Source of the DNA: a virus
Taxonomy: Duplodnaviria > Heunggongvirae > Uroviricota > Caudoviricetes
Strand: one strand, 5' to 3'
DNA length: 47,598 bases
IMG/VR virus record: IMGVR_UViG_651053021_000003
Shown here: positions 34,387-39,261 of the stretch, piece after piece
Numbering within the stretch: position 1 is the first letter of the stretch
How the letters are laid out: each line of letters begins with the position of its first letter
Made by a program: the position numbers and the translations under genes
The notes under the pieces: model-generated
Told to the model about the DNA's origin: nothing
Databases searched by the model: none
Seen by the model: the letters and a program-made list of their open reading frames with translations, nothing else

Positions 34387-35532
34387 TTATTTTTGTTTTA
34401 TGGTAAATGAAATAACATTGTCAGAATGAATCATATCTGATTCTTTAAATCGTGTAATTGCAGATAACTCATTTAAGGGAAGAGCAAAGATATCAGTTAA
34501 CTCAGTTACCTTTATGATTGAATGCTTATCAAGAAGTAAAAGTAACTTATTAAGTAACTCAGGCTCTTCTTTTGGGATTGCATCATCTAACGGCTCCCTA
34601 CGATGGAATGGCGCTAATTGCTTAAATATATAGCTTTTCTGATTATCGCTGATTAACTTAAGGCTATGACTCCTCATGGCAATACTACCGATAGATGTAA
34701 TCCAACGTAGTTTTAATCGTTCTAACGCTGATAAATTTGGACTATAAAATTCACGCCCGAAAGTGGTGGCTGGCATTAAAAAGCTGGAGGCAAAATAATC
34801 GGCCTGCAACTCCACCAGGTCGAATAATTCTTTATCATTCAGGTAGTCATCCTCCACTGCCCTATGCATAATTAAATGGCCAAGTTCATGAGCAAGACTA
34901 AATCGCATGCGAACAGCTGTCTTCGAGCTATCTAACATAATTAAAGGCCGCCCATTATGCCAGAACGAAAAGGCATCAACTTTCTCACCAGAAGGTAAAT
35001 GAGAAACCACGATTCCTTTATTTTCAACAAGTCTAGTTAAATTGAGTATTGGACCATCACCTAACCCCCAAAAACGCCTTAATTGGGTGGACATATCCTC
35101 AATATCAGATAGAGACAGAACCTCAAAATCAATAATATCGAATTCAGGCAGAACCACATCTGGTAATTGAGCATATTTTAGACATTCATCCAATATTAAT
35201 GCCGCCCAACGCCCACGTGTTTTCCCTGTAACTCGAGCCTTTTTGGTCGCAGTTGAACGACTTCTAAAATGAATCGCCCCCTCCAGAGATGGAGAAGCAC
35301 TGGAGGCTAAGAAAAATCGTTCTGGAAATCCTAACACCTTGGCTATTGCAGAAAGTGTATCAGCAGAGGGAGACTTCAACCCCTTCTCAAATGACGAAAT
35401 AGCTTGTCTTGAAATATTGAGCACTCTGGCAAGTTCAGCCATCGTCAACCCTTTTGCCTCTCTTGCCTCCTCAAGGCGACGAGGATTAAACGATTTATCA
35501 GTAAATGGTGTTTGTGCGATATTCATGCTCAT
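34387..35532 (-). CDS. Fused XRE-type HTH / ImmA-IrrE family zinc metallopeptidase (COG2856-like) protein, 381 aa
   Basis: N-terminal HTH (LTMAELARVLNISRQAISSFEKG); HEXXH motif HELGH in central domain; ~42% GC. Confidence 0.85.
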   Translation of the reverse strand: MSMNIAQTPFTDKSFNPRRLEEAREAKGLTMAELARVLNISRQAISSFEKGLKSPSADTLSAIAKVLGFPERFFLASSASPSLEGAIHFRSRSTATKKARVTGKTRGRWAALILDECLKYAQLPDVVLPEFDIIDFEVLSLSDIEDMSTQLRRFWGLGDGPILNLTRLVENKGIVVSHLPSGEKVDAFSFWHNGRPLIMLDSSKTAVRMRFSLAHELGHLIMHRAVEDDYLNDKELFDLVELQADYFASSFLMPATTFGREFYSPNLSALERLKLRWITSIGSIAMRSHSLKLISDNQKSYIFKQLAPFHRREPLDDAIPKEEPELLNKLLLLLDKHSIIKVTELTDIFALPLNELSAITRFKESDMIHSDNVISFTIKQK

Positions 35533-36143
35533 GATTGCTGTGATTTAATTATTTGTTCGGTAAGAATCTTGATTTTATCTTCAATCTCAGAATCCACATT
35601 TTCTGCTTCAACTTCTACCATCGTCATAATTGGTAAAGACTCAGTATAAAGAATCCCGTAATTATCCGAAGAAGGAACAGTTAAATTCAGTTTGGACAAG
35701 TGCTGATTACTGCCATCATGTAACATATAAACATGTCCACCAGACGCTCTCCCATCCAGGGAGTCGGCATTTTCATCCCCAAAATTCAATTCATAATTTT
35801 GATTAGCGTAAACAGCTCTATACAATGCCTGCTTAGGAAGTGGCGCATTACCCGATAAATGATGTGCCGTCATTTTCCAGTTGTTCGAGTGAATCGCAAT
35901 GTGTTTACAATTTTTAGCAGCATTGCTACCGACTTCAAAATCCAGCCCCACACGCTTAGCCGCATTCTCAAGCAATGCATCGGCATAAAACCAGCGCAAA
36001 TATGACTGTGCTTGAGCCCAAAAAGAACCAAACTCTTTTGCCTTCATATGCGAATGAAGATAAGCCTGTGCTAACGCGATCGAAAGCTCTTTGCGGCACT
36101 CCTTGTCATATGCTTCTAACAACTGTTGAGATAAATTCTGCAT
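35529..36143 (-). CDS. Hypothetical 204-aa protein co-operonic with the HTH-ImmA gene
   Basis: ATGA stop-start overlap with downstream gene; no recognised motifs. Confidence 0.65.
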   Translation of the reverse strand: MQNLSQQLLEAYDKECRKELSIALAQAYLHSHMKAKEFGSFWAQAQSYLRWFYADALLENAAKRVGLDFEVGSNAAKNCKHIAIHSNNWKMTAHHLSGNAPLPKQALYRAVYANQNYELNFGDENADSLDGRASGGHVYMLHDGSNQHLSKLNLTVPSSDNYGILYTESLPIMTMVEVEAENVDSEIEDKIKILTEQIIKSQQS

Positions 36144-36309: not shown

Positions 36310-36465
36310 TTACTCCTCAGGTTCGTAAGCTGTGAAGACAGCGACCTCCGTCTGGCCGGTTCGGATTCGTACCTCGCAGAGGTCTTTCCTCGTTACCAGT
36401 GCCGTCACAATGACGGTTAAACAGATGACGATCAGGGCGATTAACATCGCCTTTTGCTGCTTCAT
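36310..36465 (-). CDS. hok: Hok/Gef family type I toxin (51 aa)
   Basis: MKQQKAMLIALIVICLTVIVTALVTRKDLCEVRIRTGQTEVAVFTAYEPEE matches recalled Hok; an in-frame upstream extension to 36522 (70 aa) may be a mok-like leader. Confidence 0.9.
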   Translation of the reverse strand: MKQQKAMLIALIVICLTVIVTALVTRKDLCEVRIRTGQTEVAVFTAYEPEE

Positions 36466-36504
36466 AGCCTGCTTCTCCTTGCCTTTCGGCACGTAAGAGG
36501 CTAA

Positions 36505-36590
36505 CCTAGATTTGCCGTTCATAGATTGAGCCTCAGATTAATGTTAAGCGTCTTGCAGGACGCGTAATGTTAACTGGGGCTTTTCTCTAT
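36505..36590 (+). ncRNA. Putative Sok-like antisense RNA (approximate)
   Basis: Inferred from hok architecture; candidate TTGCCT-N17-TAACCT promoter and hairpin GCGTC-ttgcag-GACGC on the plus strand opposite the hok leader. Confidence 0.3.
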
Positions 36591-36676
36591 CTGCCTTTGG
36601 TGTTCATGCCTGAGGCAGATAGCCTCAAGCACCCGCAGCAATTCTACTTAACTCACGTCACCTCGCCAATATAAAA

Positions 36677-36766
36677 TCAATCAGAAAGGCGATCCATAAG
36701 AACAACAGCAAGGCAATAAATTGCCATTACAGCAGCAATAGCCAGCGCACATTTGAGAACCAGCAC
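36677..36766 (-). CDS. Candidate 29-aa hydrophobic peptide (possible type I toxin-like small membrane protein)
   Basis: AGGAGG then 5 nt then GTG; translation (M)LVLKCALAIAAVMAIYCLAVVLMDRLSD has one TM helix and a charged tail. Confidence 0.3.
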   Translation of the reverse strand: MLVLKCALAIAAVMAIYCLAVVLMDRLSD

Positions 36767-37266
36767 CACAACCTCCTGTATTGGACGTACACCAGTCCTG
36801 ATAAATATGAGGCTGTCTCGTCAGTGATTCAATACAACTATTGGGTATAGTTTCTGTGATTTTGTTCTGTAGAAATGGAACACAACAACCAGTCACCACC
36901 AGCACTTCTTTAAATACGCCAAGTCCGACGCAAGCTAACTTTCTAGTCCGCTTTGAGCGAGAAGCAGACATTTACTTAACTGGATAGCAAGAGACTTCAT
37001 ACTACAGCTCATACATCATGGTTGATCCCGGAGTTTTCAGTAATGGAAATTGCCCACATGATCGTACCGTAACCACATTAGAAGCAGGTTCACTTTGTGA
37101 ATTTTGATTGTGTCAACCTATCAGTTTTGAATTTTTATAAAAAATATTCGCAAATTTGTGAATTATGAGAGACATACGAGCATGGACAACCAATGTTACT
37201 TTCATACACAATTAAGCAACATGATAAAAATACACTGACTTTAGTAAGTAAATTTAGGAGATTGCG

Positions 37267-38601
37267 ATGTTTAGCTTAATCATGGCCGGAGAACCGGACG
37301 TTTTTGACCGCTGGCCGTGTATGGACCCTGAGCTTAAAGAAGGCAAGGAAAGCTTCTCGATGTCCCGCATGCTGGAAGGCACCCCAAGCGATATTTACAG
37401 TAAATTAACACCAATAAGACCCGATACCTTAAGAGAACTCGCCAAGTTACCGGTGTTGTTCATGACCGAAATTTATACAAAAGATGATGAATATGATACA
37501 AACAAGTACATCAGGATCAGGCTTGGGGAAATAAGAAATTTACGTAAAGATGGTGGCGATATTTTATTTTCTTTCAAGATTAATCATGATTTTGGAGAAA
37601 TAACAAATCCCCAAACGACATTATATAAAGAAACCCTAGGACTAGGATCTTTCGGGTTAAGTCGTACACATTGGGCAGTAAAAAATAAGGATTTGAATAT
37701 TGTTCTGGAATTACTTGGTTTAAACCAAAAAAATAGCCATCTGAAAGGTACAATCAAATTAAAAAAACAAACATACCCAGTAGTCGAGAATATTATAGAT
37801 TATCTTGATTTCATTAGGAAAAACTTTCGTGATGGTCTCATTACCTTTTATCGTGGACACTCTAAAAGCTCATATGAGCTTGTCCCCTCTCTTTACAGAA
37901 AAAATCAAAACGGGACGTACAGGCATCTTGCTTCAGAATCTGATTTAGTACGTGAAATACTCAGCGCAAGACCAAATGAATTTAAGGGGGATAAATTTAC
38001 GATTGATAAACTTGTCCGCATGCAGCATTATGGCTTGCCTACAAGACTCTTAGACATTACATCTAACCCACTGATAGCATTATATTTTGCTTGCTGTTCG
38101 AACCCCGATGAAAACGGACAGGTGATTTCGTTTTCAACAAACAGAAAGAAAATTAAATATTTCGACTCAGATACAGTGAGCTGTATAGCAAACTTATCAC
38201 TTTTATCTTACGAAGAGTTGGAAAAATTGTCTTCCATTGATGCCAGAAAAGGTAATATGGAGTTATTAGAACTCACTGATAAACTTGCAGACCTTATACA
38301 GAATGAAAAATCATATTTCAGAAACAGAATAAGCCCTGATGACTTAAAGAAAGTTGTTTTCCTTAAGGCTAAAATAAATAATGAACGCATACAATCTCAG
38401 GCAGGAGCTTTTCTTCTGTTCGGACTTGATCCCATTTTACCGGAAACAGATGCTGAGTTTCCTCTTAACAGAGTGGAGATAGCGAACAAAAATAAAATTC
38501 TGGAAGAGCTGGCACAGCTTAATATATCCGAAAGCACTGTATATCCCAGCATGGAGAAAACGGCAGCAGAAATTACAAAAAAGTTTTTATCGGTATCATA
38601 A
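37267..38601 (+). CDS. FRG-domain protein (444 aa), function unknown
   Basis: Motifs FYRGHSKSSYELVPSLYR, RMQHYGLPTRLLDITSNPLIALYFAC, QAGAFLLFG; AGGAG RBS; body ~33% GC, first ~45 codons ~50% GC. Confidence 0.8.
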   Translation: MFSLIMAGEPDVFDRWPCMDPELKEGKESFSMSRMLEGTPSDIYSKLTPIRPDTLRELAKLPVLFMTEIYTKDDEYDTNKYIRIRLGEIRNLRKDGGDILFSFKINHDFGEITNPQTTLYKETLGLGSFGLSRTHWAVKNKDLNIVLELLGLNQKNSHLKGTIKLKKQTYPVVENIIDYLDFIRKNFRDGLITFYRGHSKSSYELVPSLYRKNQNGTYRHLASESDLVREILSARPNEFKGDKFTIDKLVRMQHYGLPTRLLDITSNPLIALYFACCSNPDENGQVISFSTNRKKIKYFDSDTVSCIANLSLLSYEELEKLSSIDARKGNMELLELTDKLADLIQNEKSYFRNRISPDDLKKVVFLKAKINNERIQSQAGAFLLFGLDPILPETDAEFPLNRVEIANKNKILEELAQLNISESTVYPSMEKTAAEITKKFLSVS

Positions 38602-38838
38602 AGGGATAAACTAAAGGCAACGAAAACTAAGACTGCGCAGTCTTCAGGTGAAAGTACTCATCGGGAACGGTTTCAGGGTCAAAAACTGGAAGCTCCAGTG
38701 GCCTTGAGCTGCTCCCTATAAATTAACATATCTCAATGTTATCAATGTCTGCTTTTGGCACAAAGCGGACAACCACGCTAGCTCTACCCTGTGCCACAAA
38801 ATGTCAATTTGCATCTGAACTAATGCACTTTAATCTCG

Positions 38839-39261
38839 TCACTTCAATAAATACCGAACATCCCCCTGATAAAACGACAATATGCGCTGCATAACTTCAC
38901 TCTTCCGGCACTCGCGACAGATTATGTTCTGACGCCTGTCGTAGCGACGTATTTCTCCGTCAGGTAATGACCAGATAAGGTCCGGATCAACCGCAGATGG
39001 TTTCTTCAGCTTTGCCCTTGAGAGCTTTTTACGGGCATTTTGCCAGTCCTTACGCGCCTGTTCAGACGGGAATAACCCGTAACCAGAGTTGTATACATCG
39101 CCGCTGGCAACCAGCTCTCTTGCGAGAACGCTCATCAGAAATCTTGTCGCACCTGTTTTGACTTCCAGTTGCCGTAACGTCTCACGCCCACTCTGGCGTA
39201 CGAGTTCAACAACCTGCCCTTTAATTTTTTCTCGCTCTTCTTGTGTAAAAACTTTTGCCAC
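38839..39261 (-). CDS. Hypothetical early-region protein (140 aa)
   Basis: Basic protein with CxxC pair near C-terminus; downstream of putative initiator gene. Confidence 0.45.
   Translation of the reverse strand: MAKVFTQEEREKIKGQVVELVRQSGRETLRQLEVKTGATRFLMSVLARELVASGDVYNSGYGLFPSEQARKDWQNARKKLSRAKLKKPSAVDPDLIWSLPDGEIRRYDRRQNIICRECRKSEVMQRILSFYQGDVRYLLK

Follow-up and report, generated by a model that had tools for sequence, protein, structure and literature searches.

Introduction

What does a single large, AT-rich gene do when it stands beside a hok toxin gene in a lambdoid prophage, transcribed against the phage operons on either side, and how did it come to be there? The question is raised by the FRG gene of Tritos, a lambdoid prophage of Escherichia coli LF82, which is an adherent-invasive strain associated with Crohn's disease. 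The window analysed here, meaning the whole stretch of 47,598 nucleotides, is the IMG/VR virus record IMGVR_UViG_651053021_000003 (Caudoviricetes), and it is Tritos itself (100% identity to NC_011993.1 and OV696610.1). Positions 36972-38840, which hold the gene and its surroundings, correspond to 1619612-1621480 of NC_011993.1 with 100% identity, and likewise to the phage record OV696610.1. A preliminary description, made from the letters alone, had noted a 444-residue open reading frame (ORF) with FRG motifs, proposed that a foreign cassette had been recombined into a resident start region, and regarded the product as a candidate abortive-infection or defence protein. The ORF is present as described and is a real, intact gene, named 'FRG domain-containing protein' in RefSeq and 'hypothetical protein' in the phage record. 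On balance we favour the reading that it is a stand-alone, one-polypeptide anti-phage system, probably acting by abortive infection, which Tritos carries as exchangeable cargo and which is expressed in the lysogen from its own promoter. The gene and its parts are as follows.

37267..38601, plus strand: FRG ORF, predicted PUA-like N-domain plus FRG, 444 aa (WP_000492056.1 / TRITO_38 / LF82_282)
37267..37716, plus strand: N-terminal domain (residues 1-150), predicted PUA-like beta-barrel, proposed sensor
37762..38586, plus strand: match to PADLOC PDC-S15 (residues 166-440), FRG plus C-terminal half, putative effector of ADP-ribosyltransferase fold
37843..38112, plus strand: Pfam FRG domain match (residues 193-282), with FYRGH, PSLxR and QHYGLPTRLLDxTxNP motifs

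A C-terminal half resembling ADP-ribosyltransferases

The FRG motifs quoted earlier are genuine: the Pfam FRG profile (PF08867) matches with 78.1 bits against a cut-off of 25 (E=9.6e-22), over profile positions 3-92 of 94. A longer region is recognised by 14 profiles of the PADLOC family PDC-S15, the best of which (PDLC04936, E=1.2e-98) aligns over positions 17-296 of 300, and by its profile match and its occurrence as a single gene without a conserved partner the FRG gene belongs to that family. Residues 166-440 match these profiles almost end to end, and a defence-rich neighbourhood is a further point of likeness. The difference is that the best profiles, of some 300 positions, leave residues 1-165 uncovered, and the FRG protein therefore falls in a subfamily with an extra N-terminal domain, predicted to be PUA-like. 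Both the FRG annotation and the match to this candidate family are already known, hence candidacy for defence is not in itself new.

To call FRG a family of unknown function, as had been done, is partly outdated. A sequence analysis from the Aravind laboratory assigns Frg to the ADP-ribosyltransferase (ART) superfamily and suggests that it may serve prokaryotic immunity as an NADase effector; it also describes ARTs with NADase activity as under-represented in viruses and the Frg clade as deployed by prokaryotic immune systems (PMC9503650). In agreement with this independent assignment, in our own structural comparisons the FRG half matched ART-fold proteins only, and the recurring matches were to toxins and enzymes of that fold, including Tpt1 (Tpt1/KptA), RES toxins and bacterial ADP-ribosylating toxins. 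R196 and H198 of the 'FYRGH' motif (strand 191-198), S208, and Q378 just before strand 381-385 are invariant. Neither Pfam nor PADLOC detected a nuclease domain (HNH, PD-(D/E)xK or GIY-YIG) in the FRG protein, which in this respect is unlike the type IV restriction enzymes that join a PUA domain to a nuclease.

An N-terminal domain of predicted PUA-like fold

The AlphaFold2 model of the full protein has a predicted local distance difference test score (pLDDT) of 84 and a predicted template modelling score (pTM) of 0.83. When residues 1-168 were modelled alone (pLDDT 86.7), the top 13 structural matches were all to EVE, YTH, ASCH or VcaM4I, and Lon-N and ATP-sulfurylase-N, which are likewise PUA-like, came lower in the ranking. 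The model therefore suggests that residues 1-150 form a PUA-like domain with the pseudo-barrel fold of that class, and the C-terminal half would then probably be the ART-like part of the protein, a putative ART-fold effector. Sequence profiles of the EVE, YTH, ASCH and PUA families did not match the N-domain. Invariant residues that are candidates for a pocket recognising a modified base, as judged from the family alignment, are R34-x-x-E37-x-T39, E68 and R133-T-H-W-A-V-K139; the spacing of the invariant residues may resemble that of the ASCH motif GxKxxExR.

A domain shared among conflict proteins

Searched against 1.84 billion proteins, a profile of the N-domain found 825 cluster representatives, of which 183 scored E<=1e-10. 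Architectures were sampled in 52 hits whose length is at odds with a fusion to FRG, and at least 35 of the 52 carry a recognised conflict domain next to the N-domain. By Pfam, the commonest partner is a TIR domain of the CAP12/Pycsar type (15/52), with TIR_2 in four hits and TIR and SEFIR in two each; Abi_C (7/52), protein kinase (4/52) and one KAP NTPase are further Pfam partners. Single proteins join the N-domain to AbiJ_NTD3 (together with TIR) or to EAD2 (together with a kinase and an FGE-sulfatase), and in another PADLOC recognised a Lamassu LmuA-like N-terminal domain. In proteins examined individually the N-domain usually lies directly N-terminal to the effector, as in P0162 (N-domain 1-143, TIR 162-280), and the motifs SR..E.T, LP.LF..E and RTHWAVK are retained in all architectures. 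Judged by these domain orders, such swapping of partners has the combinatorial signature of a sensor domain with interchangeable effectors, and it would place FRG in the same functional position as the TIR NADases. In the literature searched, both the PUA-like N-domain of this FRG subfamily and the existence of a large, unmodelled N-domain family whose partners alternate between TIR, kinase, Abi_C, KAP NTPase and FRG, with rare fusions to a cyclase, appear to be undescribed.

Two proteins of 760-763 aa, 84% identical to each other, consist of a complete oligonucleotide cyclase of the type found in cyclic-oligonucleotide-based anti-phage signalling systems (CBASS), followed by the N-domain and then by FRG; PADLOC recognises the cyclase part with E=1e-112. 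They lie on different contigs of the metagenome ERZ25070530 (L105 5001-7283 and L109 5001-7292), with transposase genes on their flanks, and no cyclase gene adjoins the stand-alone proteins most closely related to them. The likeness to CBASS and Pycsar effectors consists in these two fusions and in the predominance of CAP12/Pycsar-class TIR among the partners of the N-domain. The LF82 gene differs in having no cyclase beside it, its neighbours being hokD/sok, RosmerTA, DUF977 and replication genes, and no cyclase is a conserved neighbour in the 80 loci considered below; the LF82 locus is therefore not a CBASS operon.

Homologues in prophage hotspots and islands

The full-length architecture is widespread, with 4117 clusters at E<=1e-5, and the 120 matches listed include many that are full-length, with 42-100% identity; conservation over the full length is found in Proteobacteria. 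A motif scan of species-representative genomes gave 441 confirmed stretches. Neighbours were analysed at the 80 loci that were kept, which come mostly from Alpha-, Beta- and Gammaproteobacteria, together with a few metagenome bins labelled otherwise. No neighbour family recurred in more than seven of the 80 species loci, and we conclude from this that the FRG protein works alone. A type II antitoxin is also lacking by the same evidence, since there is no conserved neighbour and no other ORF of at least 40 aa in the Tritos cassette.

Several relatives occupy known cargo sites. An E. coli homologue of 59% identity (WP_053263919) lies between the portal gene gpQ and the replication gene gpA of P2-like prophages, and a 45% homologue of E. 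coli lies in the same hotspot adjoining a retron-like reverse transcriptase; a 50% homologue from Klebsiella sits in a slot in the tail region of a P2-like prophage. The gpQ-gpA locus of P2 is a reservoir of anti-phage systems, and Table S5 of the study that described it lists 'FRG' cargo, including WP_053263919, with no reported test of it (Rousset et al., PMC9122126). With homologues in this hotspot and in other islands, and with the PDC-S15 match (E=1e-98), the earlier suggestion of a candidate defence or abortive-infection protein is credible.

Some details of these loci may be recorded. Beside the 45% homologue (L097 7001-9710) are the retron-like reverse transcriptase, of 316 aa, and a gene of 106 aa. 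In the gpQ-gpA hotspot of L003 the 59% homologue has three hypothetical genes between it and a DUF3850/ASCH gene, which encodes another PUA-like protein. In the Klebsiella P2-like prophages (L101-L104 5432-6829) a 439-465-aa protein with no Pfam match is encoded directly 5′ of the FRG homologue and between the tail and tail-fibre genes; this protein may be another cargo gene.

An exchangeable slot bounded by inverted repeats

Homology to sister Qin/Rac-like prophages that hold other cargo or an empty slot ends at 36960-36971 and returns at 38735-38739. The exchangeable cassette thus extends from about 36973 to 38743 and includes its own 295-bp AT-rich upstream region, so that the ATG of the FRG gene lies 295 bp inside the exchangeable unit. 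The features that define the slot and the upstream region are these.

36933..36972, no strand: left arm of a 40-nt imperfect inverted repeat, at the left slot edge, 80% complementary to 38744-38783
38744..38783, no strand: right arm of the same inverted repeat, at the right slot edge
36973..37266, plus strand: AT-rich (34% GC) upstream region of the cassette, co-inherited with the gene in Klebsiella and Enterobacter
37095-37169: three 14-nt direct repeats, TTGTGAATTTTGAT-like, spaced 30-31 nt
37146-37163: small palindrome ATTCGCAAATTTGTGAAT, just 5′ of the promoter-like site
37183-37212, plus strand: promoter-like site from a sequence scan

The FRG gene is AT-rich cargo in a variable slot adjoining hok, as had been claimed (hokD lies at 36310..36465), and comparison of related prophages confirms that the slot between hokD and DUF977 holds different cargo. 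In other E. coli it is empty or carries DUF4209, DUF5677, an alpha/beta hydrolase, QueH, a methyltransferase or other genes, and the cargo occurs in either orientation. The 595-aa DUF4209 protein found in the same slot in strain TC_EC10 (L006 2420-4207) matches the PADLOC candidate family PDC-S39 with E=8e-103, which means that the candidate defence gene in this slot is not the same one in every strain.

The inverted-repeat arms bracket the Tritos cassette exactly. The same arms flank the DUF4209 cargo of TC_EC10 (L006) and the DUF5677 cargo of APEC E19057 (L007), and none are present at the empty slot of strain B95. The repeat may be a recombination target or an inversion site. Inversion between the arms was not seen: in each of the 41 E. 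coli genomes with a match over at least 80% of 36972-38840, the alignment is one colinear piece. A slot bounded by conserved inverted repeats likewise appears undescribed in the literature searched, and it offers a concrete handle on the exchange of cargo among lambdoid prophages. Read outward, both arms encode M-S-A-x-x-x-K-R-T-x-x-L-A, the ATG not being kept in L007. The conserved left flank also contains, on the minus strand, an unannotated ORF of 96 aa (36681-36971) that has a Cys-rich tail (...CGAGSQMCAGYCCCNGNLLPCCCSYGSPF) and whose start falls on the left arm; it probably codes for no protein and is part of the region upstream of hok.

Within the cassette the FRG gene is the only ORF of at least 40 aa. 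The direct repeats and the palindrome upstream of it could be binding sites for a regulator. Promoter-like matches were no more frequent than chance, with six found against 5.8 expected from shuffled sequence, and a scan of the cassette found no terminator.

Base composition and the origin of the 5′ segment

The cassette raises a second question, that of how the start of the gene was acquired. The FRG gene is 37.0% GC overall, in a window with a mean of 48% and a structural module of 52-58%, and its first codons differ in composition from the rest.

37267..37401, plus strand: GC-richer 5′ coding segment, codons 1-45, 51% GC, GC content at third codon positions (GC3) 0.62

After codon 45 the gene has 35% GC and a GC3 of 0.32, so that its body is indeed AT-rich, the figure of about 33% given for it earlier being slightly low. 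The step sits at synonymous sites: GC3 is 28/45 in codons 1-45 and 127/399 in the rest (Fisher p=1e-4), whilst the GC content of the first two codon positions (0.46 vs 0.37) does not differ significantly (p=0.14). The best GC change-point is at window position 37391 (codon 41), a value reached by 0.3% of codon shuffles. The non-uniformity of GC along the gene is thus confirmed. The start region that the preliminary description called GC-normal is so in the first 41-45 codons, but the 295 bp 5′ of the ATG, which include an AGGAG at 37256-37260 (6 nt from the ATG), are only 34% GC.

That description had explained the pattern as a chimera, in which a resident prophage gene supplied a GC-normal start and ribosome-binding site, and a foreign FRG body of low GC was joined to them by recent recombination. 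The step at codon 41-45 is statistically real and speaks for such an event, which we nevertheless regard as hardly credible, and which was rejected for the Tritos slot when the boundaries of the slot, the orthologues of the gene and 5426 E. coli genomes (blastn) were compared. The junction of the cassette lies 295 bp 5′ of the ATG rather than at codon 45. Segment 37230-37450 occurs in 48 of the 5426 genomes, each time within an FRG gene, so in E. coli the 5′ segment is attached to FRG genes only. The same step is present in the Klebsiella orthologue of 88% identity (GC3 0.60 vs 0.34) and in the Enterobacter orthologue of 80% identity (GC3 0.56 vs 0.34), and the upstream DNA travels with them, 165-260 bp being common to Tritos and the two orthologues (from 37009 in Klebsiella and from 37103 in Enterobacter). 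The contexts are unrelated: the Klebsiella gene is at a prophage end beside colicin and microcin-immunity genes, and the Enterobacter gene is in a transposon-rich island with AAA_13, PIN_8 and transposases. Finally, residues 1-45 can be aligned to the N-termini of all family members, across a range that takes in Enterobacterales, Rhizobiales and Sphingomonas; they contain the invariant residues R34, E37 and T39, and form the first strands of the N-domain in the predicted structure.

A strong GC3 step is limited to the clade of at least 80% identity, and family members further removed have a weak step or none. A possible origin is an ancient gene conversion, within the family, in the ancestor of that clade; a search among homologues from GC-richer hosts gave no donor with a similar N-terminal sequence. 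Two other accounts were set aside. Selection on the 5′ end throughout the family is disfavoured by a mean GC3 difference of just +0.03 over 36 homologues, and a structured RNA or riboswitch in the 5′ region by a fold z-score of +0.43 and the lack of any Rfam match within the cassette.

Transcription in the lysogen

The FRG gene is on the plus strand and is transcribed, as had been claimed, against the flanking phage operons, hokD, DUF977, the replication genes, Q and the RosmerTA pair all being on the minus strand; cI is on the plus strand, like the FRG gene. Published RNA-seq of LF82 gives supplementary log2 values for LF82_282 of 4.7-5.2 in overnight LB culture, and of 6.9-7.3, 9.2-9.3 (9.3 in 'B6') and 6.7-6.9 in three other conditions; in the same data the adjacent DUF977 gene has values of 3-4.8 and cI of 8-11 (PMC9928086). 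The lysogen therefore transcribes the FRG gene, moderately and to a degree that depends on conditions. An antisense ORF that overlaps the start of the gene (37254..37382) was considered and lacks supporting evidence.

Proposed mechanism and alternatives

In the model that we infer for sensing, ligand, NAD+ chemistry and defence, the PUA-like barrel (residues 1-150) would act as a sensor, binding a nucleobase-containing ligand that appears on infection. That ligand could be phage DNA or RNA carrying modifications, or else a nucleotide, modified or cyclic, that infection releases. Binding would activate the C-terminal FRG module (approximately residues 166-440), a putative divergent enzyme of ART fold using NAD+, which would either deplete NAD+ as an NADase or ADP-ribosylate nucleic acid or protein. 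Either outcome could stop replication of the incoming phage, by abortive infection or by a direct block. There is a recent precedent for the first step, in that a PUA-like domain has been reported to sense m6-dAMP from phage-induced DNA degradation and to switch on an effector; related PUA-like domains are fused to TIR, DrHyd, HEPN, HNH and McrB, and the preprint makes no mention of Frg or ART (bioRxiv 10.64898/2026.01.15.699771). By analogy, the FRG protein may share with PUA-Cal-HAD, PUA-HNH/PUA-McrB and PUA-TIR/DrHyd proteins the plan of an N-terminal PUA-like barrel and a catalytic effector, the effectors being many and unrelated and including TIR. The partners of this N-domain overlap with theirs at TIR only, however, and the N-domain hits examined included none with a calcineurin, HAD, HNH or McrB partner.

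A bolder form of this model, which is possible although we would sooner doubt it than hold it, treats residues 1-150 as an undescribed PUA-like family of immune sensors (at least 825 representatives, with no Pfam or NCBIfam model) that detects a modified or cyclic nucleotide made during infection and has been shuffled onto at least eight kinds of effector, FRG being a new effector clade that consumes NAD+ or ADP-ribosylates nucleic acid. If so, the FRG gene would be a minimal immune pathway in one protein, and the cyclase-N-domain-FRG proteins would be a self-contained CBASS in one polypeptide. Should the preferred sensor-effector model be right, FRG proteins would constitute a new class of enzymatic effector in bacterial immunity, widespread, already flagged as PDC-S15 and carried as cargo of the P2 hotspot. 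In the N-domain there would be an abundant sensor of a new kind, and its ligand could be found directly, through the same sensor on well-understood effectors such as TIR. This model would also help to explain the phage resistance of LF82 through Tritos, with its three adjacent accessory modules, RosmerTA, hok/sok and FRG.

Phages encode ARTs that modify host proteins, and the FRG gene might be a moron with no role in defence, such as a prophage-stabilising toxin, a host-modifying ART serving the lysogen or the phage cycle, or an anti-defence enzyme acting on NAD-derived signals. The adjoining hok/sok addiction module fits this idea, as does expression that rises in one growth condition (log2 9.3, 'B6') instead of being constitutive, and hotspots of the P2 kind hold non-defence cargo too (Rousset et al., PMC9122126). 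We nonetheless consider it quite improbable. Close homologues are found outside prophages, in transposon-rich islands, and are also widespread in free-living Alpha-, Beta- and Gammaproteobacteria. There is no antitoxin-like partner, and the other partners of the N-domain are typical immune effectors; the under-representation of NADase ARTs in viruses and the use of the Frg clade by prokaryotic immunity, as given in PMC9503650, point the same way. The main rival keeps the role in defence and changes the chemistry: modified DNA or RNA of the phage would itself be the docking site of the PUA-like domain, as in PUA-HNH type IV restriction enzymes, and FRG would ADP-ribosylate that nucleic acid or transfer to its phosphate ends, much as DarT or Tpt1/KptA do, so that the invader is blocked without killing of the cell. 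A targeted modifier of this kind in place of an abortive NADase seems to us unlikely.

The reading of the FRG gene as a one-protein anti-phage system, which we prefer, must be set against several findings that weigh on the other side. PDC-S15 is a candidate defence family only, and the literature searched contains no experiment on any FRG protein. Residence in a hotspot is an association and not proof, given that such hotspots are mixed in content. Both fold assignments, PUA-like and ART, are weak and come from models: Foldseek against the Protein Data Bank (PDB) gave nothing significant (best E=0.07), a sequence search of solved structures in the PDB gave no match at E<=10, and no Pfam model (E<=1, FRG aside) or NCBIfam model matches the N-domain. 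In the family alignment no canonical ART catalytic triad was found. The position expected to hold [QE]xE reads Q378-x-G380, with no conserved Glu, and the FRG protein may therefore not be a classical transferase. The fusions to a cyclase are limited to two related proteins of one metagenome, and in LB the FRG gene falls below the threshold of five-fold over background used to define transcribed morons (PMC9928086 Table 1).

Neighbouring accessory genes

Left of the cassette the prophage carries the following accessory genes, all on the minus strand.

36310-36465, minus strand: hokD toxin gene, context left of the cassette
36460-36634, minus strand: sok antisense RNA, full (Rfam E=6.5e-26)
34387-35532, minus strand: RmrA, helix-turn-helix plus ImmA/IrrE peptidase (PADLOC E=5.5e-102)
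35529-36143, minus strand: RmrT-like gene (PADLOC RmrT E=8e-10, a weak match)

The RmrA and RmrT-like genes overlap and together form a RosmerTA-type pair by PADLOC (34387..36143). Both RosmerTA genes (14 and 30 times background) and hokD are strongly transcribed morons in the RNA-seq of LF82 (PMC9928086 Table 1). The pair is annotated merely as 'helix-turn-helix domain-containing protein' and 'hypothetical protein', and at its position sister prophages have either rem or nothing.

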